This document shows positions 1-63,274 of a stretch of DNA of 64,000 bases, piece by piece. This DNA is from Patescibacteria group bacterium (lineage in GTDB: Bacteria > Patescibacteriota > Dojkabacteria > JAKAPS01 > JAJZLI01), in contig JAMCRT010000030.1 in assembly GCA_023380695.1 (NCBI GenBank), forward strand, positions 3,978-67,977, given 5' to 3'. The position numbers were made by a program, and so were the translations under genes. The stretch's first letter is position 1. Every line of letters begins with the position of its first letter. A model generated the notes under the pieces. The model was not told the DNA's origin, made no database searches, and saw only the letters and a list, made by a program, of their open reading frames with translations.

Positions 1-1016
1 ACATTAGAAAGTGCTTCATATTCTCTTTCTGGATCTATTATTATAATCTGTGTACCAAGCATTAATGATCTTAAAGCTTCCAATTTTACAAGATAACTTT
101 TCCCTGCACCTGATTTTGCAAAAATTACAGAATTTGCATTTTCCAGTTCAAATCTATCAAAAACAACTAAACTTTTATTTGCCTTATTTATACCATATAA
201 AACTCCTTTATCTGATGTAAGCTCAGAAGAAACAAATGGAAAAGTTGTGGCAATAGACGTTGTATCCATATTATGAGTGTAATATAGCTTATCGAAACAT
301 TCAGGAAGAGTACTCTGAAACCCTCCCTCCATCTGCAATGTTGTAGGTTTAATAATAAGAGACATAGCACCCAGAGTTGCTTCAAGATTTTTTGATATAT
401 CATTTAATTCCTCTATAGAATCTGCTTTAATTGTTATATATAGTGCAAAATGAAAATATCTTTCTGCACCTTTTGCCAAATCATCTTGAAGATTTTTTGC
501 ATCATCTAGAGCAACCTTCAAATTTGGATCTAATACTTTTCCAGAATCAATCATATTATTTGTAGTTGCTTCCATTTCAGCTATCTTTTTCCTTAACTGA
601 GAAAGTACTGCTACAGCAGATACAGGATAATAAAACATACTTATATCAATAGAATGTTCAAATGTAATAAGGGGAGATAGCCAATTTGGCACAACATATC
701 TTGGATATGCTAGAGCAAAATAAGTCTTGAAAAATTTCTCTCCTATTTTTATATATGAAAAATCAACTTCTATAGAAGGCGGTGCTATAAGATCTTTTAC
801 AGAATTTAAACCCTGTCTAAATGAAGTTAGCTCATCTTTATCTGTATTTATTGGTTGAGTATTTGCCTGTGCCTCAGATGCATTGGAAGGCCCAGTACTT
901 GCAGTGTTTTGATTCATATTAAGAATAACATTATCTTGAGAATTTACCTGCATATTTCCTTCTACAGCATTTGACGCTGAATTGTTTTTATTTGTATTTA
1001 AAAAAGGTAACTTCAT
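1..1016 (-). CDS. VirB4/TrbE-family type IV secretion ATPase, body of the protein. It is partial and continues beyond the window start.
   Basis: My translation of the minus strand from the ATG at 1016..1014 gives ...LIAPPSIEVDFSYIKIGEKFFKTYFALAYPRYVVPNWLSPL...FPFVSSELTSDKGVLYGINKANKSLVVFDRFELENANSVIFAKSGAGKSYLVKLEALRSL... This carries a Walker A motif (GAGKS) and the VirB4/TraE conserved blocks. The ORF runs off the window edge. The listed 188..403 ORF is an out-of-frame artefact inside it. Confidence 0.75.
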   Translation of the reverse strand, partial: MKLPFLNTNKNNSASNAVEGNMQVNSQDNVILNMNQNTASTGPSNASEAQANTQPINTDKDELTSFRQGLNSVKDLIAPPSIEVDFSYIKIGEKFFKTYFALAYPRYVVPNWLSPLITFEHSIDISMFYYPVSAVAVLSQLRKKIAEMEATTNNMIDSGKVLDPNLKVALDDAKNLQDDLAKGAERYFHFALYITIKADSIEELNDISKNLEATLGAMSLIIKPTTLQMEGGFQSTLPECFDKLYYTHNMDTTSIATTFPFVSSELTSDKGVLYGINKANKSLVVFDRFELENANSVIFAKSGAGKSYLVKLEALRSLMLGTQIIIIDPEREYEALSN

Positions 1017-1696
1017 GATTGAGATGATACTATTGGAGATACAAAATCTTCTAAATCACCACTAAGCTTTGCACTCATAGGATTATATGCACTATAGAAA
1101 AGTTTAACAAGGTCTGATGTCGTAAGTTGTTTTGAATGAATTCCCATACGTGCTATTTGTTTAATTATATGATCTCTTCTTGGATATAATCTTACCTTTG
1201 CCTGAGATATTAAATTGTCAACATTACTTATACCAGGTTCCTTTCCAAAAAATTGCTTTACAAATGATGGTCTTTTAGGATTCCATGCAAGATAAGGAAT
1301 AATTATATAGAAATGCTTATCCAGCACATTATTTTTTACAATTAAATCCTTTATAAATTTTCTATAAATATCTATTTGGTATTTAATTTTTGGAGATGGC
1401 TGCTTAGCCTTGTATTCATCAATATGCTTAAGATACCTTGATATATCAATACTCTCAGTTCTAATTAAAACCTGTACATAAAAATTTAGAGAATTTAGTA
1501 GCCCTGCAAATGCATAAATTTTAGATTCTTGTTCTACATTAGATAACAAATAAAAATTTACAGCAGAAGTCTCCATTACAATACAAACATTGCCATTTTT
1601 TAAAACTATTAAATCATCCTTAATGTCTACAATATCTAAATGTTCTTGAGTTGTAGCAACAATTGGAACTTTTTTTGGGTCAGATAGAAATGCCAT
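1013..1696 (-). CDS. VirB4-family N-terminal domain, encoded as a separate ORF that overlaps the ATPase body in an ATGA
   Basis: 227 aa: ...PIVATTQEHLDIVDIKDDLIVLKNGNVCIVMETSAVNFYLLSNVEQESKIYAFAGLLNSLNFYVQVLIRTESIDISRY... This matches the N-terminal domain pattern of Gram-positive-type VirB4 (TcpF/PrgJ/TraE-like). Its stop (TGA 1015..1013) overlaps the downstream ATG (1016..1014). Confidence 0.6.
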   Translation of the reverse strand: MAFLSDPKKVPIVATTQEHLDIVDIKDDLIVLKNGNVCIVMETSAVNFYLLSNVEQESKIYAFAGLLNSLNFYVQVLIRTESIDISRYLKHIDEYKAKQPSPKIKYQIDIYRKFIKDLIVKNNVLDKHFYIIIPYLAWNPKRPSFVKQFFGKEPGISNVDNLISQAKVRLYPRRDHIIKQIARMGIHSKQLTTSDLVKLFYSAYNPMSAKLSGDLEDFVSPIVSSQS

Positions 1697-1698
1697 AA

Positions 1699-3537
1699 TT
1701 AATTCTCCACAGGCACAAAAATTAATGGATTGATTTTACTCCCATCTAAATTCAATCCAACTGCATTAAAAGCAATTCCAGGATATGTAACCTCCACATT
1801 ATATTGCCCATTTGCAAGTGGAGTACGTAAATAAAATTGACCTAATTGATTTGTTTTTACTGCCCGTATTGGTTTTGATGACGTATCTTTAATTATAACA
1901 ATTGCATTCGTAAGTATTTTACTATCATGTGTCAATACAATACCAGATACAACATTTGGAGTATTAACAAAATCAGGTAAATGATTTATCAACTCTTGCT
2001 GATTTACCACAGGTGCTTCATCTTCCAAAGATTCTTTATTCTTGCCCAAATCCTCACTTTCCAATTCTTCTTTTAATCTTCTATTTTCATCCTCTAGCGC
2101 TTTTATCTTATCTAAAATAGTATTCAATTGATTTTGAGAGCCAGAATTAGATACTGAATCATTTACCGTTGATGTAGAATCTTGTACTACATTATCAGTA
2201 GGTACTGCATTTGGAGTAGACATGTTCACTGTATCACTAGAATTATTCTGCACATTACCTGTATTCGAAATATTTGAAGAAGAATTGCTATTTAGCAAAT
2301 TTTGCATATTATTATCCGTTCCTTCAACATTCGTATTAGTACTGTTATTGCTTACACTAGAATTTATGGGTATTGTATTAGATGTGGGCATATTCCCTGT
2401 ACTACTAGAAGCATCCTGTACATTGTTGGCATCTGAAATATTTTGAGAAGGATTGCTATTTAGTGAACCTTGTACATCATTATCTGTTCCTCCAATATTT
2501 GAACTAGTATTATCATTATTTATACTAGGATCTATTGAGGGCGCCTGATTTGGTATTACATCCCGAGTACTTGGATTTAAAGTATCATTAATGTCTATCT
2601 GTGATGTAGTTGTCATATTACTCCTGATAGAATTTTGTGTATTATTATCATTAGTTTGTGGTGTTGTTCCCAAATTTGATACATTTGAATTACTAGCATT
2701 ACTATATACATCATTGATGTCTATATTAGCACTTTGTACTGGAGTAGCTGATATATTATTCTCATCTATTGGATTTTGAAAAGCAGGATTTGGTCCTCCT
2801 GAATTTAAAAGACTGACATCTTCTGATTTTAAATTACTATTATTCTCATTTAATAACTGACTGTTTATATTAATATTTGCGCTTTCTGCTACATCATTTT
2901 TAGCAATATCTTCATTTGTATCATTTATATCAAATGGATTATATTCGGTATTAGTATTTTGGCTATCCATACCACCAATGTTCCTTGCTACACTTCCTTG
3001 ATTGTTTTGCACAGATACTGTATTTGGAATAGTACTTGGTGATATATTAGCACTCCTTATAGCACTATCAATATTTTGCATCATCAATTTTTCTCTGTCA
3101 TCCAATTGAGAAGAAGATTTAGTATTATCTGAGTTAGAAATTGTAAAATCTGCAGGAGACTGATATAAGAAATTTGATGCCTCCCTATTAACATATGATG
3201 GAGTATTCCTTCTAGATATTTTTAATATATCTGGAATATCTGTACTTTTATTAAATACCCTTTGTGTTGGATTTTTTATTGATACAATAAAGTTTGTAAG
3301 AAAAGTATCTGCAGGTCTCCCGTCAATCGGAACAAACGCAAGAAACATTGCAAGAAGTAAAAATATTACAGTGAGTATTATTGTAAGAGAAGTATTTACA
3401 TGAAAAACATAAAACATAAACCCTATAAACAATGGAACCGCAATATATGCAAATTGTTTTAAAGACATATCTCCTATTAGTTTGAATTCTACACTCATTA
3501 TATTTTGAGGAATTGCGTGTTCTTTAGTCCCTTCCAT
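1699..3537 (-). CDS. PrgI/VirB3-like two-TM N-terminus fused to a long Asn/Ser/Thr-rich low-complexity region, a coiled coil and a C-terminal prealbumin-like (carboxypeptidase-regulatory-like) domain
   Basis: N-terminus MSVEFKLIGDMSLKQFAYIAVPLFIGFMFYVF followed by a second TM helix, typical of PrgI-family T4SS proteins. About 350 aa of N/S/T/Q-rich sequence follows. Then a KALEDENRRLKEELE coiled coil. The C-terminus GQFYLRTPLANGQYNVEVTYPGIAFNAVGLNLDG looks like a CarbopepD_reg fold. It lies immediately upstream of the VirB4 ORFs on the same strand. Confidence 0.45.
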   Translation of the reverse strand: MEGTKEHAIPQNIMSVEFKLIGDMSLKQFAYIAVPLFIGFMFYVFHVNTSLTIILTVIFLLLAMFLAFVPIDGRPADTFLTNFIVSIKNPTQRVFNKSTDIPDILKISRRNTPSYVNREASNFLYQSPADFTISNSDNTKSSSQLDDREKLMMQNIDSAIRSANISPSTIPNTVSVQNNQGSVARNIGGMDSQNTNTEYNPFDINDTNEDIAKNDVAESANININSQLLNENNSNLKSEDVSLLNSGGPNPAFQNPIDENNISATPVQSANIDINDVYSNASNSNVSNLGTTPQTNDNNTQNSIRSNMTTTSQIDINDTLNPSTRDVIPNQAPSIDPSINNDNTSSNIGGTDNDVQGSLNSNPSQNISDANNVQDASSSTGNMPTSNTIPINSSVSNNSTNTNVEGTDNNMQNLLNSNSSSNISNTGNVQNNSSDTVNMSTPNAVPTDNVVQDSTSTVNDSVSNSGSQNQLNTILDKIKALEDENRRLKEELESEDLGKNKESLEDEAPVVNQQELINHLPDFVNTPNVVSGIVLTHDSKILTNAIVIIKDTSSKPIRAVKTNQLGQFYLRTPLANGQYNVEVTYPGIAFNAVGLNLDGSKINPLIFVPVEN

Positions 3538-4562: not shown

Positions 4563-5940
4563 TAGTACTATGGAAAATGAAAATATACCATCAGCATTTA
4601 CTGAAAATATAATAAATAACCAAAATATAGAAAAGAAAAGAAAAAGACTATATATCATTTTTATTGTTATATTTGCTCTAATAATAATAATTGGAGTTTT
4701 TGCATTTCTCTACATAGGAGGATACATAAAACAAAAAACAGTAGTCCCAAATAAACATATCACACTTACAATGTGGGGAATAAGACAACCTCAGAGTGTA
4801 TATCAAAGTGTAATTAATGAATATGAGAAAGCAAATCCAAATGTTACAATTCAATATACACAGATCCCAGACAAATATTATTTAAGCACACTTTTCAATA
4901 AAGTGCGCTCTGGAGTTGCAGTTCCAGATATTATTACAATAGGAAACACATATCTTCCTTTATTTCAAAACTATCTTACACCAGCTCCTCAAAACATTAT
5001 AAATTTCGAAACATTTAAAAAAGAATTTTACCCTACCGCAGTAAGTGATCTTACAAATAATAGACAAATTTATGGACTACCACTAGAATATGACGGCCTT
5101 GCATTAATGTATAATAAACAAGAACTTACAGCAGCAGGATTTAGTAGGCCTTCAGAAAATTTTAATACATTTGTATCACAGATACCAAAACTTGTAGTAA
5201 AAAATAAAAATGGACAAGTTACACAAGCTGCAATAGATATAGGAACAAATACATCAAATATCTATAATGCATCAAATATCTTAACATACCTAATGTTTCT
5301 ATCTGGAACACAAATGACAACATCACACAGTGTCACCTTCGCAAATTCAGCATCAGGAACAGATGCATTGAATGTATACAACAATATAGCAAAGATATCA
5401 GGATGGAATAGCATATTTCCTTCTGCTGTATATGCATTTGCCAAAGGAGATGTAGCTATGATATTTGCGCCATCTTGGCAGATACAAAATATTCTAAATA
5501 TAAATCCATCTCTGAGTCTGGGAGTAGAAGAACCTCCTCAAATACCAGGAAAATCTGTAAACCTATCTTTGTACTTTGCAAAAGCAGTTCCAAGGGGAGC
5601 ATTGCATCCAAATAGTGCATGGAAATTTCTTGTATATCTTTCATCTAAAAATTCACTTTTAATGCTTTTTAAAAATGAACTGTCTGCAGGAGAAAAGATG
5701 GGAGAGACATTCCCAAGAATAGATATGGCAAACCTTGCATTAAATTACCCATACATGCAGGCTTTTACAGGAATGGCTCCTACTTCAAAATCTTGGCACA
5801 TAGGAGATTATATAGCAGTATCAAATATTTTTGATCAAGTGATTGAAGGTAAAATTACTCTAGTCCAGGCTCAAAGTGAAGTACTCTCAATATTAGTAAA
5901 AATTGCAAATGGGACATATTCTATCCCTCCAGGAGAATAA
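4552..5940 (+). CDS. Membrane-anchored extracellular solute-binding protein-like (SBP family 1-like)
   Basis: N-terminal TM helix. Then LTMWGIRQP...NPNVTIQYTQIP...PDIITIGNTYLP and IYGLPLEYDGLALMYNKQELTAAGF resemble family-1 sugar SBPs. Confidence 0.5.
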   Translation: MVYDSTMENENIPSAFTENIINNQNIEKKRKRLYIIFIVIFALIIIIGVFAFLYIGGYIKQKTVVPNKHITLTMWGIRQPQSVYQSVINEYEKANPNVTIQYTQIPDKYYLSTLFNKVRSGVAVPDIITIGNTYLPLFQNYLTPAPQNIINFETFKKEFYPTAVSDLTNNRQIYGLPLEYDGLALMYNKQELTAAGFSRPSENFNTFVSQIPKLVVKNKNGQVTQAAIDIGTNTSNIYNASNILTYLMFLSGTQMTTSHSVTFANSASGTDALNVYNNIAKISGWNSIFPSAVYAFAKGDVAMIFAPSWQIQNILNINPSLSLGVEEPPQIPGKSVNLSLYFAKAVPRGALHPNSAWKFLVYLSSKNSLLMLFKNELSAGEKMGETFPRIDMANLALNYPYMQAFTGMAPTSKSWHIGDYIAVSNIFDQVIEGKITLVQAQSEVLSILVKIANGTYSIPPGE

Positions 5941-7612
5941 ATATATGGATATAAAGGAACTGTTAATAGAAAATAATTATCTTACACCACAACAATATGA
6001 AGCTTTAGAACAAAAAGCTAAACAAATTTCAAGCTCAATAGATGAACTTCTAATATCTCAAAATATAATAACAGAAGATCAATTAGGCGCTTTGATTGAA
6101 AAGAAATACTCTATTCCTTTTATCAATCTAAGTAATGTAGCAATAAATCCGGAAATAATAAAAATAATACCTGAAAAAACCTCCCTTACAAAAAAAATAG
6201 TAGCATTTGAAAAAACAGTATCTACTCTAAAAATTGGAATGGTAAACCCAAGAGATATAAATACAATAGAATTTATAAAGAAAGGTACAGGATATAATAT
6301 TGACCCATACTATATAACAGAAAAATCATTCTATGAAGCATTAAAATTTTATAAAACTTCAATAAAGGAAGAATTAAAAGATTTAATAGAAAAAACAACT
6401 AAAGATGTAAAAAATATTGGGGAGAATGACACAGAAGCACTGCCAATAATAAAAATAACAGACAAGATTTTTGAATATGCAAATACAATGGGAGCATCAG
6501 ATATACACATAGAACCTCAAGAAAAAGATGCAATAATTAGATACAGAATAGACGGTATATTACATGATCAAGCTACCCTTTCTACACATATATATCAGGC
6601 AGTAATTGCAAGAATAAAAATACTGGCAAATTTAAAAATTGATGAACATAGACTTCCTCAAGATGGAAGATTTAAAACAAAAATAAATGATCTTGATATA
6701 TCTTTTAGAGTCTCTATTATGCCTGTATATTATGGAGAAGTAGTGGTGGCAAGATTGCTTGAAAGTAGTGCCAAGGAATACTCTTTAGATGTCCTAGGTT
6801 TCACAGATAGAGATCTTAGTGTTGTATCAGACTCTATAAAGAAAACTGTTGGAATGATACTAGTTACAGGACCCACAGGCTCTGGAAAAAGTACAACTTT
6901 GTACACAATGCTATCTTTAGTCAATAATCCTGAAGTTAATATTGATACAATAGAAGATCCAATTGAATATAGCATGACAAGAATAAATCAAACTCAAATA
7001 GCTCCACAAATTGGACTTACATTTGCATCAGGTCTTAGAGCATTTCTAAGACAAGACCCTGATATTTTGATGGTAGGAGAAATACGAGACAATGAGACTG
7101 CAGATATTGCAGTAAATGCTGCAATGACAGGACATCTTGTATTATCAACATTACACACAAACAATGCAATTGGGGCAATACCAAGACTCCTAGATATGGG
7201 AGTAGAACCATTTCTTGTATCATCAACTCTAAACCTTATTATTGCGCAAAGGTTAGTTAGGAAACTTTGTAATTCATGTAAAGAAAAATATACTTTGGAT
7301 AAGAAATTACTGGCAGTACTAAAATCACAAATGACAAAAATGGGTATATCTATAAACTTTGATGTAAAAAACCTATTTAAAGCTAAAGGATGTCAGTACT
7401 GTTCAAATGGATATAAAGGAAGAATAGGAATATATGAGGTTATAGAGGTTGATGATATAATCAAGGGAATGATATCAAGAAATGAGAACATAAATGAAAT
7501 AGAAAAAATTGCAAAGAAAAATGGAATGACATTGATGATGGAAGATGGAATTAAAAAAGCAATGAATGGCATTACCTCAATTGAAGAAGTACTACGAGTT
7601 ACTAAAGAATAA
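5903..7612 (+). CDS. pilB: Type IV pilus assembly ATPase (GspE/PilB family)
   Basis: N-terminal GspII_E-like domain. Walker A motif GPTGSGKSTTLYTML. Conserved Asp/His boxes. C-terminal CxxC...CxxC tetracysteine. Confidence 0.9.
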   Translation: MQMGHILSLQENKYMDIKELLIENNYLTPQQYEALEQKAKQISSSIDELLISQNIITEDQLGALIEKKYSIPFINLSNVAINPEIIKIIPEKTSLTKKIVAFEKTVSTLKIGMVNPRDINTIEFIKKGTGYNIDPYYITEKSFYEALKFYKTSIKEELKDLIEKTTKDVKNIGENDTEALPIIKITDKIFEYANTMGASDIHIEPQEKDAIIRYRIDGILHDQATLSTHIYQAVIARIKILANLKIDEHRLPQDGRFKTKINDLDISFRVSIMPVYYGEVVVARLLESSAKEYSLDVLGFTDRDLSVVSDSIKKTVGMILVTGPTGSGKSTTLYTMLSLVNNPEVNIDTIEDPIEYSMTRINQTQIAPQIGLTFASGLRAFLRQDPDILMVGEIRDNETADIAVNAAMTGHLVLSTLHTNNAIGAIPRLLDMGVEPFLVSSTLNLIIAQRLVRKLCNSCKEKYTLDKKLLAVLKSQMTKMGISINFDVKNLFKAKGCQYCSNGYKGRIGIYEVIEVDDIIKGMISRNENINEIEKIAKKNGMTLMMEDGIKKAMNGITSIEEVLRVTKE

Positions 7613-45504: not shown

Positions 45505-46638
45505 TTATCTCTCATATAATGGCATTATTAAATATGTATAATTACCAAGGTTTTTATCTATAATTTTAGATACTTTTCTAGATTCTGAACTGTTTAATTC
45601 AATTGAAATTTTTTCACCATCGCTGTGGTTTAAAAAATCCATTATATAATTTGCATTAAAATTAACACTTATATCTTTACCTTCAATTTTTGTTTTTATA
45701 GATGAATTTAGATCTCCAACTTCTTTTAATCCAGAATTAAATTCTACTTTATTTTCAATTGAATTAAACAGTTCAGAATCTATAGATATTTCTTTAAATT
45801 TAAAAGGTGTTGAAAGTTTTAAAATATTTTTTAAGTCCTCCCTTTTAATTTCAAATGATGTTGAATAGAATTCTGGAAATATTTTTTTGTAATCTGGATA
45901 TTTTCCTTGTATAATTCTTGATATAAATTTTATATTTTCTATTTCAAAAAGTATTTGATTTCCAGAAATCATATATATATACATAGATACATTATCTTCA
46001 AAATTTTTAGTTTTTATAATATCTGAAATATTATCAAGAGCTTCTTTTGAAATAACTAGATTGTCTATAGAAGATTTTATATCTTCGCTTTCTATTGATA
46101 TACTGGCTAATCTAAAACCATTAATTCCAATAAAGTTTATATTTTTTTCGTCAAATTCCATTAAAACACCTGTTAAAATAGGTCTTGCTTTATCTTTGGA
46201 TGTTGCAAAAGATACTTTATCTATAGCAAAAGATAAAGCATTTGGATTTATTTTTATAAAATAATCTGTATCCTTGTCTCTATCAGGAATATCTGGATAT
46301 TCATCTGTTGGAATTGTATTTAAACTAATTTCATTTTTTTTGTCTTTTATATAAAGAGTGTTGTCTTGTAATAATATATTTATAATACTAGATTTTAAAT
46401 TTGCTATTATTTCGTAGAAATTTTTTAAATTTATTGTGCATTCACCTTTTTCTATAACCTCTATACCTACAATAGTAATTGCACTCTGTTCTAAATTTGT
46501 ACTTTTAATTACTAGTTTTTTCCCATCCACTAAAAGTAGTGCATTATTTAAAATAGGAATAGATGTTCTAACAGGAACTGTTTTTATATTTAAACTTAAA
46601 GCCTCAAGTAAGTTTTCTCTTTTTATTCTAATATTCAT
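45505..46638 (-). CDS. dnaN: DNA polymerase III beta sliding clamp
   Basis: MNIRIKRENLLEALSLNIKTVPVRTSIPILNNALLLV. Three-domain length. Downstream of dnaA. Confidence 0.9.
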   Translation of the reverse strand: MNIRIKRENLLEALSLNIKTVPVRTSIPILNNALLLVDGKKLVIKSTNLEQSAITIVGIEVIEKGECTINLKNFYEIIANLKSSIINILLQDNTLYIKDKKNEISLNTIPTDEYPDIPDRDKDTDYFIKINPNALSFAIDKVSFATSKDKARPILTGVLMEFDEKNINFIGINGFRLASISIESEDIKSSIDNLVISKEALDNISDIIKTKNFEDNVSMYIYMISGNQILFEIENIKFISRIIQGKYPDYKKIFPEFYSTSFEIKREDLKNILKLSTPFKFKEISIDSELFNSIENKVEFNSGLKEVGDLNSSIKTKIEGKDISVNFNANYIMDFLNHSDGEKISIELNSSESRKVSKIIDKNLGNYTYLIMPLYER

Positions 46639-46917: not shown

Positions 46918-48252
46918 CTATTGTAAAGAACTTCGTATTTCATAAATTTGATTTTTTAGAGCATAATCATCATTTATCATTTTTTCTATTTTATCTACTG
47001 CATACATTACTGTTGTATGATCTTTTCTTTTTAAAAGACTTGCTACATCTGTATAGGGAAGATTTAAATCTACTCTTAAAAGATACATAGCTACCTGTCT
47101 TGGCATAACCACTTTATTTGTTCTTCTTTCTCCCCTTATTTCTTTTATTGATATACCAAATTTTTCACATATTGTATTTATAACATCTTGGGGTTTTATT
47201 CTTTTTATAGTTTTTTTTATCTGTATTCCTAAAATATCTTGTATTTCACTAAATCCCAGTTTTTTTTGTAAAGAATTTTGTATTGCTTCTATTTTTGTTA
47301 AAATTCCTTCAAGTTCTCTTACATTGGATCCAAAATTCTCAGATATAAAATTTATTATATCTTTATCAAATGTTATGTTTTTTTCTTCACATTTTTTATT
47401 TAAAATTGCAGTTTTTAGTTCTATATCTGGAACTCCAATGTCAGCAACCATTCCACCTTCAAATCTAGATACTAATCTTTCTTCTAAATTTTCTATATCT
47501 CTTGGGTGTCTGTCTGAGGCTAATATTATTTGCTTATTTGCTTGATGAAGAGAATTAAATGTGTGGAAAAACTCTTCTTGAGTTCCTTTTTTACCAGATA
47601 TAAATTGTATATCATCAATTATTAAAACATCTTTATCTCTGTATTTTTTCCTAAATTTATCTGAAGAACCATTCTTAATAGACTCTATTAGTTCTCCTAG
47701 AAATGTCTCTGAAGATAAATAAACTACAGAATAACCCTTATTCTTATCTTCTATGGCATTTCCTATGGCTTGTAGTAAGTGGGTTTTTCCAAGACCAACA
47801 CCTCCAAATATAAAGAGAGGGTTGTATATCATTCCAGGTTTCTCAACTACTGCAATAGAAGCTGCATGTGCAAGTCTGTTTGAGGAACCGACAACAAAAT
47901 TAGAGAATAGGTATTTTTTATTTAGATTTGAGGTTTGTTTTTTATCTGTATTGTCTGTTTCTTTTGTATATTCAAATATTGGAGATATGTCATCATCTTC
48001 TAGTTTTTGTATAATTGAAAAATTGATATCAATGGGTTCTCCTGAGGCATCTTGAAGTGCATTTCTTACAGTATTTAAATAGTTGTTTTGAATATAGTCT
48101 ACTATAAATGAATTCTGACATTCTATATTTGCAACCCCATCTTTAATTTCTTTTAAATTTAATTTTGAAAACCAAACTTTAAAACTCTTTTCAGGAACCT
48201 TCAGTTGTATTTTGTCAGTTGCTATTTTCCAAACAGAGTTGATGTTGTCCAT
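46918..48252 (-). CDS. dnaA: Chromosomal replication initiator DnaA
   Basis: LFIFGGVGLGKTHLLQAIGN is the Walker A motif. The C-terminal HTH block ...DHTTVMYAVDKIE is present. Confidence 0.95.
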   Translation of the reverse strand: MDNINSVWKIATDKIQLKVPEKSFKVWFSKLNLKEIKDGVANIECQNSFIVDYIQNNYLNTVRNALQDASGEPIDINFSIIQKLEDDDISPIFEYTKETDNTDKKQTSNLNKKYLFSNFVVGSSNRLAHAASIAVVEKPGMIYNPLFIFGGVGLGKTHLLQAIGNAIEDKNKGYSVVYLSSETFLGELIESIKNGSSDKFRKKYRDKDVLIIDDIQFISGKKGTQEEFFHTFNSLHQANKQIILASDRHPRDIENLEERLVSRFEGGMVADIGVPDIELKTAILNKKCEEKNITFDKDIINFISENFGSNVRELEGILTKIEAIQNSLQKKLGFSEIQDILGIQIKKTIKRIKPQDVINTICEKFGISIKEIRGERRTNKVVMPRQVAMYLLRVDLNLPYTDVASLLKRKDHTTVMYAVDKIEKMINDDYALKNQIYEIRSSLQ

Positions 48253-48456: not shown

Positions 48457-49101
48457 TTATAAAATGGCATTAACACTATCTGAAGAGTCTTCAAGCTTAG
48501 CTTCATCTATAACTTTATTTAAGTGAGTTTTTGTCATAGTTTTTAATTTTTTTGAAGGTATTTTCTCTACCCAGTTGAACAACCCGTTATAATCAAAATT
48601 TGATGGCAATGTTAACTCAACCAATGAAACATGGCGAGACCCAAGAACCGAGAGCAGATAAATTGTGTCGAATAGTGCTTTTTCCTTTGTTGCTAAACGT
48701 ACTCCATTTGTTTCAATAAATCCTCCATAGAGTTCTTTTGTAATATGATAAATGTGGAAAGTACCTAATGCAGTAGGTATTTTTTGAGCACGATCTAAAG
48801 ATATAACATGGATTTCTTTGGGAATTTGTTCAATCATATCATGCCTTGATAAGGCTGTCCAAAAAGATCCATAGGCACTATATGGAGCGGTAAGATATGG
48901 GGCAACAATAAGTGGATCCCTTATTGTGCTAATTGCCCACAATCCCCTTTTTATTTTTGTAACAACTCCAGAGTCTACTAGGGTTAACATAGTCTGGGAT
49001 GCAGCTGGTAGGGTTTTTTTTAAAACTAAAGCTACCTCAGTAGTTGTGACTATCGGTTTTTTAACTTGCGCTAGACGACCCAACGACATTATAGAATTCA
49101 T
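48457..49101 (-). CDS. AbiEi-like antitoxin/transcriptional regulator (COG5340-type winged-HTH N-terminus)
   Basis: KKPIVTTTEVALVLKKTLPAASQTMLTLVDSGVVTKIKRGLWAI is the AbiEi_4-type N-terminal domain. TAATG overlap with the upstream gene. Confidence 0.65.
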   Translation of the reverse strand: MNSIMSLGRLAQVKKPIVTTTEVALVLKKTLPAASQTMLTLVDSGVVTKIKRGLWAISTIRDPLIVAPYLTAPYSAYGSFWTALSRHDMIEQIPKEIHVISLDRAQKIPTALGTFHIYHITKELYGGFIETNGVRLATKEKALFDTIYLLSVLGSRHVSLVELTLPSNFDYNGLFNWVEKIPSKKLKTMTKTHLNKVIDEAKLEDSSDSVNAIL

Positions 49102-49919
49102 TATTTATCCTCCTTTTGGATTTTGATCTTTTTAATTTTATTAAATTTGTTTGAATTCTTATTTTTATGTATATTATTCATACGATTTATGACAAATTCA
49201 TGCATCCTTTCCCATGACTTTATAGAGTCATATGTTATTCTAAAATCATCTTTTAAAAAAGGGATTACCTGTTCTTTGAAATCTTCATAAGTTAGATTCT
49301 CTACTCTTGATAAGGCCTCTAATATATCTTTCTGTTTTAATATAGTGAGGTGACTTTCTGTTTTTCTGAATAATATCTCTAAATCAAAAATGTCTCTAGC
49401 CTTTGTTTCATTTCTTCTTGCTAGTGCCATAATTTTTTGGTCAATCATTGCATCTAAATTATATCTTTGCAGTAAGTATGGAGTAATGCCATATTGCCCA
49501 ACAATGCTTTCGGGAATATCTATTGTATCAAAACCATAGTCACTATGACGACCAGAAAATTCTATTTTAGTTCTAATTTCAACATCAGAGTTAGTTAAAA
49601 CTAATCCTAATTTCCAGCGATGAGTAGTTGTAGTCTGTTTTGGTTTACTAATATTTACAATGGAAATATTAGCACTATTAAGAGTACTAATAAGTACATT
49701 ACTAACTAAAACCTGACCAACAATTTTTTCTAGCTTTAATCCTTCATCTTTGATTAAATCTAGCTCAATGTCATTAGAATACCTAGGACTATTAAAATAA
49801 TACCTAAGATTAGCACCACCTTTAAGTACGTAATTTTTTGGATTATACTTATAAACCAAAACCGATAAAAATGTTAAATGGAACCGTTCTATAATTTGTG
49901 GTTTTGACGTTTCATTCAT
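49101..49919 (-). CDS. AbiEii/AbiGii-family nucleotidyltransferase toxin (DUF1814)
   Basis: YVLKGGANLRYYFNSPRYSNDIELDL is the PF08843 signature (KGGTaL...RfSeDlD). Confidence 0.7.
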   Translation of the reverse strand: MNETSKPQIIERFHLTFLSVLVYKYNPKNYVLKGGANLRYYFNSPRYSNDIELDLIKDEGLKLEKIVGQVLVSNVLISTLNSANISIVNISKPKQTTTTHRWKLGLVLTNSDVEIRTKIEFSGRHSDYGFDTIDIPESIVGQYGITPYLLQRYNLDAMIDQKIMALARRNETKARDIFDLEILFRKTESHLTILKQKDILEALSRVENLTYEDFKEQVIPFLKDDFRITYDSIKSWERMHEFVINRMNNIHKNKNSNKFNKIKKIKIQKEDK

Positions 49920-50642: not shown

Positions 50643-51167
50643 ATGAAAAATGAAGGTTTCACTCTTATAGAAATACTTTTAGTTATAGTTATAATAGCAA
50701 TACTTGCATTAGTTGTGTTTTTAAATATTCAACCACAAGGAAGGATATATGATGCTACAGATAGTACAAATATAAAAGAGATTAAATCTGTTTTATCTGC
50801 AGTTGAGATGTACACGGTTGATAATAAAGGTAATCCTCCTTCATCTATTCCGTTTATTCCCTCTCCTTTCATTACAAACAATAAAAATTCTTCAGGTTTA
50901 GGTTCTGGGTTTAATATTACAAATAATTCTACAGGAATTCCTAACTGTACTCAGGCAGGGGCTAACACAAACACATGCTTACCAATAACTAATGCTTTAT
51001 TTGACTCTCAGATAAAGAAATATTTATCTGCTATGCCTTCTGGGCAATTTTATATTGCAAGAAGTTCTGGTGGTTCACAAATTGTTGTGTTTTCATCAAG
51101 TATGAAAAAAGGAATAACAATTGATAGTAAAGGGTTTGGAGTAGGATTTGATATTTACAGATTTTAA
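50643..51167 (+). CDS. Type IV pilin (class III signal peptide MKNEGFTLIEILLVIVIIAILA)
   Basis: Canonical G/FTLIE motif. Confidence 0.8.
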   Translation: MKNEGFTLIEILLVIVIIAILALVVFLNIQPQGRIYDATDSTNIKEIKSVLSAVEMYTVDNKGNPPSSIPFIPSPFITNNKNSSGLGSGFNITNNSTGIPNCTQAGANTNTCLPITNALFDSQIKKYLSAMPSGQFYIARSSGGSQIVVFSSSMKKGITIDSKGFGVGFDIYRF

Positions 51168-51241
51168 ATATAAAAGAGTTGTTTGACAAAACTGTAAGGT
51201 TATTCTAAATTTAATATAATAAAAAGGAGGTGAGCTAGAAA

Positions 51242-51778
51242 ATGAAAAAAATAAATAACAAGGGTTTCACCTTAATAGAAATTCTTATAGTAATTGTTAT
51301 AATAGCTATACTTGCATTAGTTGTATTTGTTGCAATAAATCCTGTAGGTAGGATTCATGATGCAAACAACTCATCAAGAGTATCTAACATTAAATCAATA
51401 TTTAATGCTGTGCAGATGTATACTTCTGATAATCAAGGATCATATCCAGGTGGGTTGTCTCAACTTTCATCTCCACTTATAACAAGTGCTGCATATGGTT
51501 ATTCTGTTACCGGATCTACAATTGGAGTACCTAATTGTGTTTCAGGTTCAGGAACAATACCTAATGCTACAGTTACAGTTTCTTCATCTTGTGTACAACT
51601 TACATCAGGATCTACAATATATACAGAACTATCTAAATACGTAAGCTCTCTTCCAACAGGGAATTACTATTTAGCTGAAAATAGTGCAGGAAACAAAGTT
51701 GTAGTATTTGCAACTGGAATGCAACAAGGAGTAACATCCGATACTGCAGGTTATCCAGTAGCTTGGGATTATAACTAA
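51242..51778 (+). CDS. Type IV pilin, likely the major pilin
   Basis: MKKINNKGFTLIEILIVIVIIAILA. Strong Shine-Dalgarno (aaaaggaggtga) 8 nt upstream. Followed by a GC-stem terminator. Confidence 0.85.
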   Translation: MKKINNKGFTLIEILIVIVIIAILALVVFVAINPVGRIHDANNSSRVSNIKSIFNAVQMYTSDNQGSYPGGLSQLSSPLITSAAYGYSVTGSTIGVPNCVSGSGTIPNATVTVSSSCVQLTSGSTIYTELSKYVSSLPTGNYYLAENSAGNKVVVFATGMQQGVTSDTAGYPVAWDYN

Positions 51779-52812: not shown

Positions 52813-53028
52813 AGATATATGGCTATTGATAGTTTGTATTGATTGATATATATTTAAAATATGATAAAAAGATTTATATATTTTGTTTATTTAAAACTTC
52901 AGTTAAAGTTTCTAAAATTTAAAGTTTTGAAAAAAAGACTTGGGGCATATAAAGAGGATGCAGTATCTTTAATCGAGAGTAATTCCCACTCAGATTTAAG
53001 AGCTAAAAGCTCTATAAGTATAAAAAAT

Positions 53029-54438
53029 ATGTTCTATATTCTTATTGTATTTTTTGCTCTAACTACAGGGGTTGTTTTTGCAAGCTCAGGGAGTTCAAAT
53101 TTAAATCAATGTGCTCCAGTTAACGGGTCAGGATTGTCTGTTTGGAATTCTTGTGGTTTTACCCCGTCAATTTTTCAATCAATGTCAATTTCAATACTTG
53201 GAAACTATACTCAATATCAAAATTTACTAGGTTGTGGAAGTAATCAAAAGTGTGTTAATTCATTTCATTACACAGGAGGATATGGGGCACTAGGAGATAC
53301 AACAGCACTTATGGGGTATATGTATACAGAGCATCCTGCATCAGGTGTTGGGTATTTTGCATACCTAGGACAAAAAGCAGGCTTTATAAACAATACCTAT
53401 GCTGCGGGTACTTCTCAGGTTACTTCAGAGCCTGTATATGGATTTTCTTTTCTTTCCCCAATAGAACATCTTTGGGCATTTTCTAGAGATATAGCATACT
53501 TACTTCTAGTTATAGTTATTATTGCAACAGGTCTTCTTATTATTATTGGGGGGAAAGTAGGGCAGTCTCAAATTCCAATAACGTTTATGAGTGCACTTCC
53601 AAATATTGTTGCAGCAGTAATATTGATAGAATTTAGTTATGCACTAGGGGGTTTTATGATAGATATAATGAATATTTTACTAGTACTTATTTTTAATATA
53701 TTTAGCTCGGGACTTCAGCATCTTGGGAACACAGGTTTTCCTTCTGCATTTAGTAGTAATTCATATATTTTTCATGTATTTGGAAGCTTACCTGGCGCCA
53801 TTAGTGGTGGATTACAGTCAGCAAGATTAAATAAACTTGTTACGAGTGGAGGCTTGTTAGGGGGACTGTTAAACTCATTAGGTAATCTTGCTTCGAACAA
53901 GACATTTTCTGGGATTATAGCTTTTTTAATAGCTATAATCCTATTATTTACAGCCTTAAAAATATTTATTTTACTTATGAAATCTTACTTGCAACTGTTA
54001 TTCTTGCCGATAGCTGCACCTTTTATGTTTCTTTTTGGGGCATTTCCAGGACAGGGAAAAATGATAGGTAAGTTTTTTATGGGTATGGCTAAAGCAGTTT
54101 TAACATTTGTTATTGTATATGTTGTGTTTCTTTTAATTTACTATTTACAACATGGAAACAATGGAAGTCCTTTGTCATTTGGAAATGGAGCAAATGTACC
54201 TTTGTTAGGATTTTCATATTTTACAAGTAATGGAGGAACAGAGGTGGTTTCTGTATTTATCTCTATTGCTTTGTTTGTCTGGATTCCAAAGATTGTAGCT
54301 GATATGACAAAGGCATTTGGATATGATCTTGGTGCATATGGTACAGAACTTAAAAAGGGATTTTCAGACCCATACTCAAGGCTTACTAATTGGTATAAAA
54401 GAGGGAGAGGTTCTCTGTCTTCCAGAGGTAATGCCTGA
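53029..54438 (+). CDS. VirB6/TrbL-like polytopic membrane protein (signal peptide, Cys-containing extracytoplasmic domain, 5 or more TM helices). Tentative.
   Basis: Start chosen at MFYILIVFFALTTGVVFASS (the track ORF begins at 52861). About 140 aa extracytoplasmic domain with 5 Cys. Then multiple Gly-rich TM helices. The architecture and context resemble VirB6/ConG. Confidence 0.35.
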   Translation: MFYILIVFFALTTGVVFASSGSSNLNQCAPVNGSGLSVWNSCGFTPSIFQSMSISILGNYTQYQNLLGCGSNQKCVNSFHYTGGYGALGDTTALMGYMYTEHPASGVGYFAYLGQKAGFINNTYAAGTSQVTSEPVYGFSFLSPIEHLWAFSRDIAYLLLVIVIIATGLLIIIGGKVGQSQIPITFMSALPNIVAAVILIEFSYALGGFMIDIMNILLVLIFNIFSSGLQHLGNTGFPSAFSSNSYIFHVFGSLPGAISGGLQSARLNKLVTSGGLLGGLLNSLGNLASNKTFSGIIAFLIAIILLFTALKIFILLMKSYLQLLFLPIAAPFMFLFGAFPGQGKMIGKFFMGMAKAVLTFVIVYVVFLLIYYLQHGNNGSPLSFGNGANVPLLGFSYFTSNGGTEVVSVFISIALFVWIPKIVADMTKAFGYDLGAYGTELKKGFSDPYSRLTNWYKRGRGSLSSRGNA

Positions 54439-54452
54439 TTGTATATTTTATT

Positions 54453-55109
54453 ATGAATCTTAGAGCATATTATTATCAAAAATATGGAAATGAATTTGAT
54501 GTATTTGCCCATTTTATAAATACAAATGGACTAGAAAGTGACTTTTTGGAGCTGTTTGAAGTATCAAGAGATTATTTGAAAGATAGCCTAGATTTTGTTT
54601 TGTATGATTATTTTTTTTCAGCAATAGATTTTTTTTATTCAAATAGTTCTGATATAAAATATGATTTTCTTTTCTTTAAAAAAATAATAGATGAGAAGTT
54701 TATTGAGTTTTGTATGTCAGATGAAGGGAAAGAGATAATTGATGAGACACATCTATATTTTGGAGGGAAGAGTATAGATATATTCGATGTTATTTATAAT
54801 AGTAGAGAACATTTTGAAAATTCCGATTATCCTTCTGTTGTTACAAATCTAGAATATTTCAAATTTCTAGATAAATATTCAGATATAAAATATATAAAGG
54901 AGGTAAAAATTCTATCAATGCTTAGAACATTTATTGACAATGGGGGTTTTGGTGGAGAATTTTTCTCTCCATTTAGCAAAGATATGCAAAAATATACAGA
55001 CATTATTATAAATGGAGATTTTAGAGAAATGGATCAAAGAGTTTTCAGAAGTAATATTGAAGAATTTAGAGGAATTTTAGAAATAGAAGATATAGGGGTA
55101 TATGAATAA
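54453..55109 (+). CDS. Hypothetical acidic cytoplasmic protein
   Basis: No TM helices. Rich in D/E/F/Y. Confidence 0.35.
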   Translation: MNLRAYYYQKYGNEFDVFAHFINTNGLESDFLELFEVSRDYLKDSLDFVLYDYFFSAIDFFYSNSSDIKYDFLFFKKIIDEKFIEFCMSDEGKEIIDETHLYFGGKSIDIFDVIYNSREHFENSDYPSVVTNLEYFKFLDKYSDIKYIKEVKILSMLRTFIDNGGFGGEFFSPFSKDMQKYTDIIINGDFREMDQRVFRSNIEEFRGILEIEDIGVYE

Positions 55110-57835
55110 TGGATATAAATACTGCGGTTAGCACATATTGTGACCAATACTATACAAAAGAAGCTCTTTTTAGACTTTTGCGTACTAATAAAATAGATCC
55201 TGGTAATATAACAATTTCTGATGACGAGTTAAATATACTAGTCTCTACAGATCAATATGCAAGATTTGTTACACTGCAAATTGCAGAAAATCTTAAAGCA
55301 AGATTTACTGCAAATAAAAGTACTGTATATAGACAGAGATATCTTAACAATGAGGCAGATTTGCTTTCTAAGGCTATAGCCCCATTTATTGCATCAAGCT
55401 ATATTCCAGATGAAAGAAGGGAAGGTAGAGTAACTGGCATTAACGGCGTACATACAAATCTTAGGGCAAGAGGAAAGATGCTGGAGACTGCAATTGACTA
55501 TTGCCTTACAGTGTATCATGAACATGGGTATATGCCTCAATTAGATCAAACTTTGAAGCCTGTAGGAGCTATTCTTCCATCTGGATTTTCTAGAACCGGG
55601 AGTATTGATATAAGAGGGGGGAACGTTGACTCTGTTTCTTTACAAGATTTGCATTCTGTAATAAAGGAAGTCGCATGGAATGCTGGAATAAGGGCTGGAG
55701 TAAAAAGTCTTACAAAAAAACAAAAAATAGCAAGATTACAGTCTAAGTATGGAATATCTTCTGATGAGGCAGAAAGAATTTATGAAAAATTTTTGGAAGA
55801 GTTTAGTTATATAAATATACTTCAAAAAGATAATGGGAAAAGTTATGAGAGACCTTTACTTGAAAGACACGGAATCTACCCAAGACTATATCTTTGGCAA
55901 TATATATTAAATGATACTAGGGCAAAAAGAAAGGGGTCTCTGTTAGATATTCCACATACATGGAGAATGGCAGCAAAAATAGGGTTTACTTCTGCTATAT
56001 CCTCTGGTCGTTGGGGAAATGTGAGAGACGCAAGTGCATATAGAGACACAATTTTTGGAAAGATTTTCGAACACAAAAAAATTGAATATATGGGAGCTGT
56101 GATGAGTTTTGTTGCCAAAGAAGAGGAAAGAACTCTTCCACTAGTTGTAAGTAGAGAGCGTAAAAGAGCTCTTAAAGGAAGAAGGTTGTGGGGTGCTGAT
56201 AAAACTAACCCATATTTATATTCCGACTATATTGACTCTCAAGTTTTCATTAAAGCAAATAGTAAAAAGATTTCTGATAGATTAGAAGAAACGGTGTCTG
56301 AGAGAAATTCTGTATTAAAATGGTTTCAGAAAACAAAAAATGCAAAAGCAATAAAGGCATATAAAAAGCCTCCTAGTAAGAAAAGTAAAAAAAGAAGAGG
56401 ATTAAATTTTTTAGATTTAATTTTGGCTGTTCCTGCATTAGTTATAGATGCAATAACTTTTCTTGCTACAGATGCTGCTTTAGCTGGAGTAAGTGTTTTA
56501 GGCAAATTAGGAATTGTTAGTGAAGATAGTTTTTTAAGAACTATTTTTTCAGGAAATATGGAAGGAGGATTGTGGGATAAAATTCTTCTTTCATGGGATG
56601 GAATGAAATTTACATTTTCTGGGCTTAAATTTGTATTAAAAGATTCAATTGTGGGGGCAATACCTGGGGCTATAGTGGCAGTTCTTTCAGGGAGTCCATT
56701 GCTTGGTGGAATTGTATCTTTTACAATGTTTGCTCCAAAATTCTTTGGAGACTTTACACAAATGTTTGCAATGTCAGGGCCTGCAGGTGATATAGTTACA
56801 AAAATTGTAGAGGATTTTGGAGAAAAAAGTCTTTCAGGTGGAGAGATTTTGGTAAAATCACTTGGTTCTGGGGTATATATTGGGGCCCCTTTATTTATAC
56901 TGTCTGCACTTTTTGGCCTTCCTATAGGAACTGCAGCTCTTATTACTGTGGGGGTTGTTGGGGTAAGGGCAGCAGATCTTGCTATCTTTGAGAAAGTTTT
57001 AAGTCCAAGATTTATCGACGCAGGTGCCATAGATGCATCTACCGCTCAGGAGGTTTTATTTAAATCAAAATATCTTCTTAATTTTGGTACTCCTAGTCTT
57101 GGACTAGTAATTGCAGGTGCCGTGACAGGGAATATACCTTTATTAATTTTAGGTGGTGCAGGGTTTACAACATCTGCAGTTTCAGATTTCTTTAGAAATT
57201 CTTTGTTTGACAGTATGTCTATTAAAAGTGGGACAGATTTAGTTTCTTCTATACATGGAGTTACAACATTTACGTTGGGTCCAGCAATAATAGGTGGAGC
57301 CATAGGCGGTCCAGTGGGAGCAGTAATAGGAGGAGCTATAGGAGGGGTTACTGGTATTAGCTTTACTCTATTAAAGCATACGGTTTCAGATATAGCTATA
57401 GATCCAAGAATGCGGGTATTTGCAGAAGATGAGAGCAAAATGATAGAGGCTCAAAGAAAACTTATTTCATTTAATAGAAATTCTTTTACTACTGATGCCG
57501 AGAGAGGTATTTTAAGAAACTTTGATCCACGAACAGGAGTAGACGGGAATATTGACAGTTTATTGAGAAGTAAAGGATATGATTTTAAAATACAGGATTT
57601 GAGAGATTGGGGATTAAATGATGCTGATATTGAAAGGTTGTTTAGAGGTAGGGCTACTTTCTCAGGGACAGTTATAGGGGTGAAAAATTTTAACTTTGAA
57701 CTGAAATCATTAAAGGAGAATGTAGAAGCAGTAAGGGGAGAATTTTTAAGGGATTTTGTTAATGAAGATAAACTTGCAACGGATTTGGGAAAGGGAACTT
57801 CAGCTACAGCTCCCATATATTCAATTTTTTTGTAA
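55109..57835 (+). CDS. Large (908 aa) protein: soluble N-terminal domain of about 420 aa followed by a glycine-zipper-rich multi-TM region
   Basis: Residues 420-720 are full of GxxxG/AxxxG arrays (e.g. GGAIGGPVGAVIGGAIGGVTG). I recognise no catalytic motif. Confidence 0.45.
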   Translation: MDINTAVSTYCDQYYTKEALFRLLRTNKIDPGNITISDDELNILVSTDQYARFVTLQIAENLKARFTANKSTVYRQRYLNNEADLLSKAIAPFIASSYIPDERREGRVTGINGVHTNLRARGKMLETAIDYCLTVYHEHGYMPQLDQTLKPVGAILPSGFSRTGSIDIRGGNVDSVSLQDLHSVIKEVAWNAGIRAGVKSLTKKQKIARLQSKYGISSDEAERIYEKFLEEFSYINILQKDNGKSYERPLLERHGIYPRLYLWQYILNDTRAKRKGSLLDIPHTWRMAAKIGFTSAISSGRWGNVRDASAYRDTIFGKIFEHKKIEYMGAVMSFVAKEEERTLPLVVSRERKRALKGRRLWGADKTNPYLYSDYIDSQVFIKANSKKISDRLEETVSERNSVLKWFQKTKNAKAIKAYKKPPSKKSKKRRGLNFLDLILAVPALVIDAITFLATDAALAGVSVLGKLGIVSEDSFLRTIFSGNMEGGLWDKILLSWDGMKFTFSGLKFVLKDSIVGAIPGAIVAVLSGSPLLGGIVSFTMFAPKFFGDFTQMFAMSGPAGDIVTKIVEDFGEKSLSGGEILVKSLGSGVYIGAPLFILSALFGLPIGTAALITVGVVGVRAADLAIFEKVLSPRFIDAGAIDASTAQEVLFKSKYLLNFGTPSLGLVIAGAVTGNIPLLILGGAGFTTSAVSDFFRNSLFDSMSIKSGTDLVSSIHGVTTFTLGPAIIGGAIGGPVGAVIGGAIGGVTGISFTLLKHTVSDIAIDPRMRVFAEDESKMIEAQRKLISFNRNSFTTDAERGILRNFDPRTGVDGNIDSLLRSKGYDFKIQDLRDWGLNDADIERLFRGRATFSGTVIGVKNFNFELKSLKENVEAVRGEFLRDFVNEDKLATDLGKGTSATAPIYSIFL

Positions 57836-57865
57836 AGAGAAATTCCAGGATACAGAGACTTAAAG

Positions 57866-62830: not shown

Positions 62831-62875
62831 CAATATGTTCTTGCAAAAGAATTTTAATATATATAGTATATTTAT

Positions 62876-63274
62876 ATGAACTTAACAGAACTTCATACTA
62901 TAATAAAAAAGTATTATCCTTGGGGATTATTAATAATTCTTTTTATACTGATTATTATATTTATAATGTCCCCATCTACTCCTGAGATCAATAAAAATAT
63001 TCCAAAAAGCCTAGAAGTAGTAAATCAAAGTAAATTTAGTGCGAAAGCAATAAATTATAATGGGCCAAATTTCGACATACATTATGTTCCAACTTATCCT
63101 AGTAACGGAAAGTTGAGTGCAGGGAAACTATATGTGGATATAAAGGTAGATGCTTTTTTAAATTCTCCTAATTTAAAAAAAGAGGAATCAATTCTTTTGA
63201 ATAAAGCAAAGAGATATTTATCAAAAAATGGAATAAATCCAAATGAGAAAAGTATAGTGTATACATTTAATTAA
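62876..63274 (+). CDS. Small membrane-anchored/secreted hypothetical protein
   Basis: N-terminal TM helix. Confidence 0.3.
   Translation: MNLTELHTIIKKYYPWGLLIILFILIIIFIMSPSTPEINKNIPKSLEVVNQSKFSAKAINYNGPNFDIHYVPTYPSNGKLSAGKLYVDIKVDAFLNSPNLKKEESILLNKAKRYLSKNGINPNEKSIVYTFN

Follow-up and report, generated by a model that had tools for sequence, protein, structure and literature searches.

A probable type IV secretion ATPase module with a split VirB4 and a long PrgI/VirB3-like protein in a Dojkabacteria chromosome

The window analysed here is a stretch of 64,000 nt from a Patescibacteria group bacterium of the Dojkabacteria (GenBank assembly GCA_023380695.1, contig JAMCRT010000030.1). At its left end, in positions 1-3537, it carries three consecutive minus-strand genes: a prgI/virB3-like gene, a trsD-like gene and the 5' part of a virB4 gene. 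With a probability of about 85%, we regard this triad as encoding the ATPase module at the inner membrane of a type IV secretion system (T4SS) that is chromosomal and MPF-FATA-like and belongs to the monoderm type found in Patescibacteria; in it, the 227-aa TrsD-like protein and the 670-aa ATPase together make up a split VirB4. This "split VirB4" is the already published TrsD plus VirB4 arrangement; what is added here is the detail of the junction and a rare natural fusion of the two parts.

A preliminary description of the region had placed a 227-aa VirB4 N-terminal open reading frame (ORF) and an ATPase ORF in different frames, with an ATGA junction at a low-complexity linker, and had left open whether this was a genuine split gene with translational coupling, a frameshift or a sequencing error. 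The layout was confirmed on the minus strand. The TGA stop codon of the 227-aa frame (1015..1013) overlaps the ATG of the ATPase (1016..1014), the ATPase is read in the -1 frame with respect to the trsD-like gene, and it opens with about 55 N/Q/S-rich residues. Since indel errors are common in low-complexity stretches, two frames overlapping by 4 nt at such a place could suggest an ordinary single-ORF VirB4 that is interrupted by an indel error of sequencing or assembly, or that has recently become a pseudogene through a frameshift. However, the exact 227-aa protein is also encoded in three further assemblies (ENA ERZ27237490, Logan SRR25885122 and Logan ERR3200799), whose contigs matched the window at 100% identity, also over the 141 nt surrounding the junction. 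When one genome per species was scanned, relatives were found to be encoded at 435 loci, and the best 80 of these, all from Patescibacteria lineages (e.g. Dojkabacteria and WWE3), were examined together with L001, a longer contig of the present genome comprising a 20.7-kb locus that is identical to the window where the two overlap. The TrsD-like and ATPase parts were found in separate stop-to-stop ORFs in all 81 loci, and the split point, for which a comparison of VirB4 homologues had been proposed as a check, was homologous in all 80 related species-level loci. In addition, a second cluster of the same genome is split likewise, and the ATPase body was absent from 149 of the best 150 TrsD-family cluster representatives. 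An indel or recent pseudogene therefore has next to no probability.

Programmed ribosomal frameshifting at the junction, giving a fused full-length VirB4, would be compatible with the -1 frame of the ATPase and the overlap of the ORFs. However, no slippery heptamer was found in the junction TCTCAATCATGAAG, and the frame relation of the two genes varies across species. Among the 80 loci with an assignable start, L001 included, 13 had a 1-nt overlap of the TAATG type, nine had ATGA (one of them L001) and 31 had a spacer of 0-12 nt, many of these spacers being 1-12 nt long; the remaining junctions were longer overlaps, or spacers with an ambiguous start. In 8/80 loci, the two genes shared one frame, interrupted by a stop codon. 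The ATPase also has a start motif of its own, which is conserved across loci (MxLPF/MGLFDF-like, such as MKLPFL, MGLFDFL and MALPFF) and followed by a low-complexity leader of ~40-100 aa, and GGAGG was often present just upstream of the ATPase start in the related loci. Frameshifting is thus extremely improbable here. As the assemblies were identical, the ORFs were separate in all loci, junctions and frames varied, the start motif was conserved and a slippery site was absent, sequencing error, recent pseudogene formation and programmed frameshifting were excluded, and the split is real, ancient and conserved, with a split point that is homologous across species. The genuine split gene was therefore the right one of the options first offered, with translational coupling as a proposal drawn from the gene layout. 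The split is not unusual; it corresponds to the published TrsD plus VirB4 arrangement that is typical of Patescibacteria (PMC12102498).

Quinonero-Coronel et al. (2025; PMC12102498) reported that TrsD is remotely homologous to the N-terminal portion of VirB4, and that no other type IV secretion component is as abundant in Patescibacteria, with 2,272 homologues, 1,664 of them adjoining virB4. When the family profile of the 227-aa protein was compared with TrsD of pGO1 using hhalign, the two matched with a probability of 95% (E 2.9e-8, 180 columns), columns 13-207 aligning to residues 31-217 of 227. Residues 16-133 of the 227-aa protein matched the VirB4_plasma model only at positions 104-233 of 894 (E 2e-8). 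The ATPase match follows on the same model at positions 292-893, and this colinearity argues that the two proteins are consecutive pieces of one VirB4. Joining both window proteins in silico raised the VirB4_plasma score from 259 to 280 bits. The AlphaFold2 (AF2) model of the 227-aa protein had a predicted local distance difference test (pLDDT) score of 74, and the 14 best matches in a Foldseek search of the PDB were all R388 TrwK/VirB4 chains; a sequence-level PDB search with the TrsD-family profile gave no match, so that the VirB4 link in that database came from the fold search only. The protein and its relatives had no match in the local copy of Pfam, and most of the relatives are listed under PF26593 "TraC-like" in precomputed tables.

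There were 665 homologues of the 227-aa protein, with lengths of 208-306 aa among the 120 matches listed, and an exhaustive profile search collected 3,398 TrsD-family cluster representatives. Among the best 150 of these representatives, only P0194, a metagenomic protein of 787 aa, carried the TrsD-like domain and the ATPase body in one chain. P0194 is a natural in-frame fusion of the two with a short linker, and it aligned as one stretch to positions 3-735 of the 752-position CD1110 VirB4 model. By the Rosetta-stone argument, this natural fusion indicates that the TrsD-like protein and the ATPase body together correspond to VirB4. Judged from these alignments, the 227-aa protein corresponds to the first ~170-230 residues of a canonical VirB4, which have become detached, and the 670-aa protein to the remainder, with what is left of the N-terminal domain and the RecA-like motor.

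No membrane helix was found in the TrsD homologues. Many of them (among P0186-P0267) reach 300-715 aa owing to long Q/P/S/T/N-rich C-terminal tails, and many of these long tails end in a conserved LPPIAEI(K/E/T) motif. The TrsD-like protein of the window has no such tail; instead, its ATPase opens with MKLPFL and a 55-aa low-complexity leader. The N-terminal extensions of two other homologues (P0239 and P0250) were considered as fused PrgI hairpins and contained only low-complexity sequence.

It could be argued that the TrsD-like protein is an independent factor, such as a regulator, an assembly chaperone or a substrate adaptor, which has only its ancestry in common with the VirB4 N-terminus. 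TrsD has no assigned function in pGO1 and often does not adjoin virB4 in Gracilibacteria (PMC12102498), and the extra tails with their LPPIAEI-like ending would also fit such a role. On the other hand, the two genes are tightly adjacent or overlapping in nearly all loci, the ATPase misses exactly the part that TrsD supplies, and the fusion P0194 aligns as a single VirB4. We consider an independent factor improbable and retain the split VirB4.

Starting at the ATG at 1016, the ATPase ORF is cut by the left edge of the window, so that 338 of its codons lie inside. Extension of the contig to the left in L001, a step suggested earlier, completed the ATPase to 670 aa and confirmed its VirB4 identity. 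Even the edge-cut product of 1..1016, for which a VirB4 match had been predicted, aligned to positions 172-460 of the NCBIfam model for CD1110-family VirB4 with an E-value of 4e-48. The 670-aa protein scored 382.1 bits against NF045971 (CD1110-family VirB4; cut-off 325) over positions 172-733 of 752, and its residues 52-626 aligned to positions 292-893 of 894 of VirB4_plasma, the model for Mycoplasma integrative and conjugative elements (ICEs). A Pfam P-loop_TraG match (E 5.5e-26) and a Walker A motif GAGKS at aa 303-307 were also identified, and the protein was 28% identical to pGO1 TrsE over 625 aa (E 4e-45). Its N-terminus consists of the MKLPFL motif, the N/Q/S-rich leader of ~55 aa and the rest of the VirB4 N-terminal domain. 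With matches starting only at model position 172/752 (CD1110) and 292/894 (VirB4_plasma), the ATPase does not contain a complete VirB4 N-terminal domain, and the upstream 227-aa gene supplies what is missing.

In two related genomes (L033:6968-10591 and L049:6773-10570), an insertion of ~580 aa was seen exactly inside the VirB4 Walker A motif, between K and S of GxxGKS. The insertion ends in ...FVHN before SYLVKLEAL, an intein-like C-terminal HN followed by Ser+1, and looks like an intein in the P-loop of a Patescibacteria VirB4.

The 612-aa product of the first gene matched Pfam PrgI (PF12666) at aa 9-94, corresponding to model positions 2-90 of 91, with 31.3 bits (gathering cut-off 27), and CarboxypepD_reg at aa 530-589 with 30.0 bits, just under the cut-off of 32.3. 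PrgI/VirB3 proteins are small (~100-135 aa) with short cytoplasmic ends, and the present protein is far longer. A PrgI-like module with two transmembrane segments, fused to a low-complexity region of ~350 aa and to a C-terminal domain of prealbumin fold, had been proposed for it. The fusion was confirmed, with a linker of 345 aa inside one 612-aa ORF, and AF2, Foldseek and the family profile agreed on a transthyretin-like fold for the C-terminal domain. The best Foldseek matches of this beta-sandwich were the C-terminal domains of carboxypeptidases N and D, CnaB2, EbpB and SdrD, and the family profile of the domain found the SdrD B domain (E 5.5e-12) and carboxypeptidase M (E 1e-6). The linker contains 21% N, 16% S, 9% T and 8% D, compared to 7% N, 8% S and 6% T in the other window proteins. 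It is net acidic and has no cysteine, and neither an internal protein repeat (by self-BLAST) nor a tandem repeat in its DNA was found.

The PrgI module and the C-terminal domain were present in one ORF in 45/81 loci, in ORFs of 259-785 aa, and the precomputed Pfam tables gave the same pairing (PF12666 with PF13620). The linker of these homologues is 76-593 aa long and its composition depends on the lineage, being N/S-rich in close low-G+C relatives and P/E/K/Q-rich elsewhere (up to 26% P). Because the modules are kept while the length and composition of the linker vary, the protein appears to have conserved ends and a middle that evolves freely as a spacer. Neither the 2025 survey (PMC12102498) nor recent reviews mention a long PrgI extension, a full-text search combining PrgI and the domain also gave no mention of it, and the conserved C-terminal extension of the VirB3 homologue seems to be the only undescribed element of the locus.

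In four related genomes (L008, L059, L066 and L077), the PrgI module and the beta-sandwich are in two adjacent ORFs, which reflects either a genuine split or an indel error within the low-complexity linker.

The hydropathy profiles of the 612-aa protein and its homologues contained no third membrane helix. On average, 2.7 K/R residues were counted in the tail before the hairpin and 4.6 in the 30 residues after it, with a very short loop between the helices. Based on the two helices, the K/R-rich flanks (positive-inside rule) and the short loop, both termini were predicted to be cytoplasmic. VirB3 proteins are known to span the membrane with two helices and to keep both of their short ends in the cytoplasm, and VirB3-VirB4 fusions require this topology (PMC12857230, PMC12624023). 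Long Q/N/S/P/T-rich tails are also carried by the ATPase and by TrsD homologues, which have no membrane helix, so low complexity is no surface marker in this system. The extension is thus predicted to lie probably in the cytoplasm, which makes the "surface-type region" of the preliminary description doubtful. The opposite placement would make it a wall-spanning stalk presenting the CnaB/transthyretin-like domain at the cell surface, with the function of a VirB10 stand-in or an adhesin. Such a stalk is suggested by the closest folds, which are mostly extracellular (carboxypeptidase C-terminal domains, the SdrD B domain and the pilins EbpB and BcpA), and by the P/K/E-rich linkers of many relatives, which recall the spacers of TonB and VirB10. 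It is opposed by the exact number of two hydrophobic helices with none later, by the charged flanks and very short loop, by the cytoplasmic VirB3 termini that the fusions need (Mycoplasma model positions 15-95, then 104-233), and by the comparable tails on proteins that have no membrane helix. We therefore regard an extracytoplasmic stalk as unlikely and prefer the cytoplasmic placement.

The following course of events would be consistent with the gene layout. The three genes are probably co-transcribed, since they are tightly packed (with 2 nt between the prgI-like and trsD-like genes) and a search for terminator-like sites between the three gave none; a promoter scan gave a result no better than shuffled sequence. 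Translation may be coupled through the GGAG 8 nt before the trsD-like start and through termination-reinitiation at ATGA, which would provide roughly equal amounts of each protein. TrsD would then bind the ATPase body and rebuild a VirB4-like protomer including its N-terminal domain, and the two-helix hairpin of the PrgI-like protein would anchor this protomer on the cytoplasmic side of the membrane, in the way that VirB4 of R388 is docked there by VirB3. Once assembled, the hexamer would power the pilus or channel activity of a non-conjugative machine for host interaction. The disordered spacer, helix and beta-sandwich might, as a guess, extend into the cytoplasm and act, on their flexible tether, as an adaptor for a partner.

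Several observations weigh against this reading of the triad. The 227-aa protein reached only 22.5 bits (E 8e-5) with the NCBIfam TrsD/TraD model (NF041427), for which the cut-off is 200, and by this score it is a distant relative rather than a member of the narrow staphylococcal TrsD/TraD family. The Foldseek matches to TrwK/VirB4 were specific but weak (E 2e-3, TM-score ~0.35). No Shine-Dalgarno-like motif was found before the start of this ATPase. Genes for VirB6, VirB8, VirB1 and a coupling protein were not found adjoining the triad, and another VirB3/TrsD/VirB4 set lies 6.7 kb from it. The cytoplasmic placement of the extension comes down to the two-helix count, the charge bias and homology, and coupling and assembly are deduced from the gene layout and from work on R388 and pCF10. 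The coordinates of the triad and its parts are given in Table 1.

Table 1. Features of the triad at the left end of the 64,000-nt window
Feature	Position in window	Strand	Basis
prgI/virB3-like gene with long C-terminal extension, 612 aa	1699..3537	minus	Pfam PrgI and CarboxypepD_reg; GenBank MCL4392969.1 'PrgI family protein'
PrgI/VirB3 module, aa 1-110	3208..3537	minus	Pfam PF12666; weak match to pGO1 TrsC, E 8e-4
Predicted two-helix membrane hairpin, aa 29-72, helices parted by HVNTS	~3322..3453	minus	Hydropathy and K/R counts
Low-complexity linker, aa 111-455	2173..3207	minus	Composition and self-BLAST
Predicted long alpha-helix, aa 465-494, possibly coiled coil	2056..2145	minus	AF2, residues 11-40 of the segment from aa 455
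Predicted transthyretin-like/CarboxypepD_reg-like beta-sandwich, aa 531-607	1717..1947	minus	AF2 (pLDDT 93-98), Foldseek and family profile
trsD-like gene, 227 aa, soluble product	1013..1696	minus	NCBIfam, hhalign and Foldseek; GenBank MCL4392968.1 'hypothetical protein'
GGAG, Shine-Dalgarno-like motif in last prgI-like codons, 8 nt before trsD-like ATG	1705..1708	minus	Consensus match only; putative function
ATGA stop/start overlap of trsD-like gene and virB4 body	1013..1016	minus	Read from sequence
VirB4-type ATPase body, 5' part (aa 1-338 of 670)	1..1016	minus	Translation and NCBIfam; gene cut by left window edge

The 612-aa and 227-aa products are identical to GenBank proteins of "Patescibacteria group bacterium". 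The G+C content of the window is ~29%. It contains dnaN (45505-46638) and dnaA (46918-48252), both on the minus strand, and a minimum of the cumulative GC skew at ~48-50 kb, and the chromosomal replication origin is probably located within it. As dnaA, dnaN and the GC-skew minimum are in the window, the triad is chromosomal; it lies ~45 kb from the origin and is co-oriented with replication. The genes around it are unrelated: those for an NTP-transferase, a solute-binding protein and a PilB-like ATPase lie to one side, and to the other lies a gene for a Kelch-repeat protein. The genes called in L001 (20.7 kb) included no member of a relaxase or VirD4 family, and no tRNA gene or Rfam family was found within the window. 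A conjugative element would be expected to have a relaxase and a coupling protein near VirB4 and a mobile context; neither was seen among the genes called in L001, the flanking genes are housekeeping genes, and dnaA and dnaN lie 45 kb away.

Components of type IV pili were also identified in the window. The PilB-like ATPase (MshEN and T2SSE in the precomputed table), encoded at 5903-7612, adjoins the neighbours of the triad, and two proteins with prepilin-type N-methylation motifs are encoded near the origin at 50643-51778. An AbiEii-type toxin gene is located at 49101-49919.

A second type IV secretion-like cluster was identified in the same genome at L001:17348-20684, 6.7 kb to the left of window position 1. 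It encodes a TrbC/VirB2-like pilin (80 aa), a protein of 314 aa, proteins resembling VirB3 (100 aa) and TrsD (169 aa), and another VirB4. Like the triad, it is split three ways, and its TrsD-like/VirB4 junction is again ATGA. The preliminary description had instead taken a block in the right-hand part of the window as part of the T4SS. This plus-strand block (52861-63274) comprises seven ORFs without a confident family match: three polytopic membrane proteins (525, 908 and 560 aa), three proteins with a single N-terminal hydrophobic segment (290, 815 and 132 aa), the 815-aa one having a weak M23 peptidase match, and a 218-aa ORF without a hydrophobic segment. No type IV secretion family of Pfam or NCBIfam was matched in the block (52.8-63.3 kb), so its link to the T4SS was not established, and the real second cluster is the one to the left of the window.

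T4SSs are among the few systems shown to be essential for the growth of Patescibacteria on their hosts. In Southlakia epibionticum, the trsD gene and T4SS components are essential (Wang et al. 2023, as cited in PMC12102498). The split of VirB4 adds little in itself, having been published before, and it is now firmer through the conserved split point, the variable frames and the natural fusion. The more useful lead is the VirB3 homologue, in which a long disordered tether and a conserved beta-sandwich occur in more than half of the related loci. We tentatively suggest that in a large part of the Patescibacteria the VirB3/PrgI anchor has gained a conserved module, consisting of a disordered, hypervariable tether followed by a helix and a transthyretin-like beta-sandwich, that is absent from described T4SSs. 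Together with the disordered tails of TrsD and of the VirB4 N-terminus, this module may form a flexible cytoplasmic platform recruiting substrates or partners in a machine essential for the epibiotic lifestyle, although this proposal as a whole falls a little short of an even chance. If the topology were reversed, the extra module would be a wall-spanning stalk. If the beta-sandwich has a substrate, a partner ATPase or the cell wall as its binding target, the domain would provide a handle on what the Patescibacteria machine transports.

Compared with known systems, the locus most resembles the T4SS clusters surveyed in Patescibacteria, which are often near dnaA and mostly lack a relaxase, and in which PrgI/VirB3 homologues are reported to be widespread and no VirB3-VirB4 fusions were reported (PMC12102498). 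As in those clusters, PrgI/VirB3, TrsD and VirB4 are found together, on the chromosome and close to dnaA, with no relaxase nearby, and a VirB2-like pilin gene is present, here in the neighbouring cluster. Unlike in that survey, the triad stands alone among unrelated genes, with a second and more complete cluster 6.7 kb away.

The machine had been described as being of Gram-positive type, which agrees both with the best VirB4 models (the CD1110 and Mycoplasma ICE families) and with the layout of trsC-trsD-trsE in the S. aureus plasmids pGO1 and pSK41 (pGO1 subclass, MPF-FATA). The gene order is the same as in pGO1, the sizes are very similar (TrsD 227 aa in both; TrsE 672 aa in pGO1 and 670 aa here), and homology was found for all three proteins (TrsD with an hhalign probability of 95%, TrsE with E 4e-45 and TrsC with E 8e-4). 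In contrast to the present locus, the plasmid pGO1 is conjugative and carries a relaxase, a coupling protein and further trs genes, its TrsC has 135 aa and no extension, and its trsD and trsE are 14 nt apart without overlap.

The order of VirB3 hairpin, VirB4 N-terminal part and ATPase is also that of canonical VirB4 (R388 TrwK, pCF10 PrgJ and CD1110) and of the VirB3-VirB4 fusions, and the predicted fold of the 227-aa protein is most similar to R388 TrwK. The three parts are separate polypeptides here, whereas all of them are fused in Mycoplasma (ICE Mbov_0397 family) and the last two are fused in most systems; Campylobacter plasmids are further carriers of VirB3-VirB4 fusions. With the VirB3/PrgI family (PrgI of pCF10, 117 aa; VirB3 of A. 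tumefaciens, 108 aa), the 612-aa protein shares the N-terminal motif, the two-helix hairpin and a gene position just upstream of the VirB4 module. It differs from both in being five times longer and in adding the 345-aa disordered linker, the helix and the transthyretin-like beta-sandwich.

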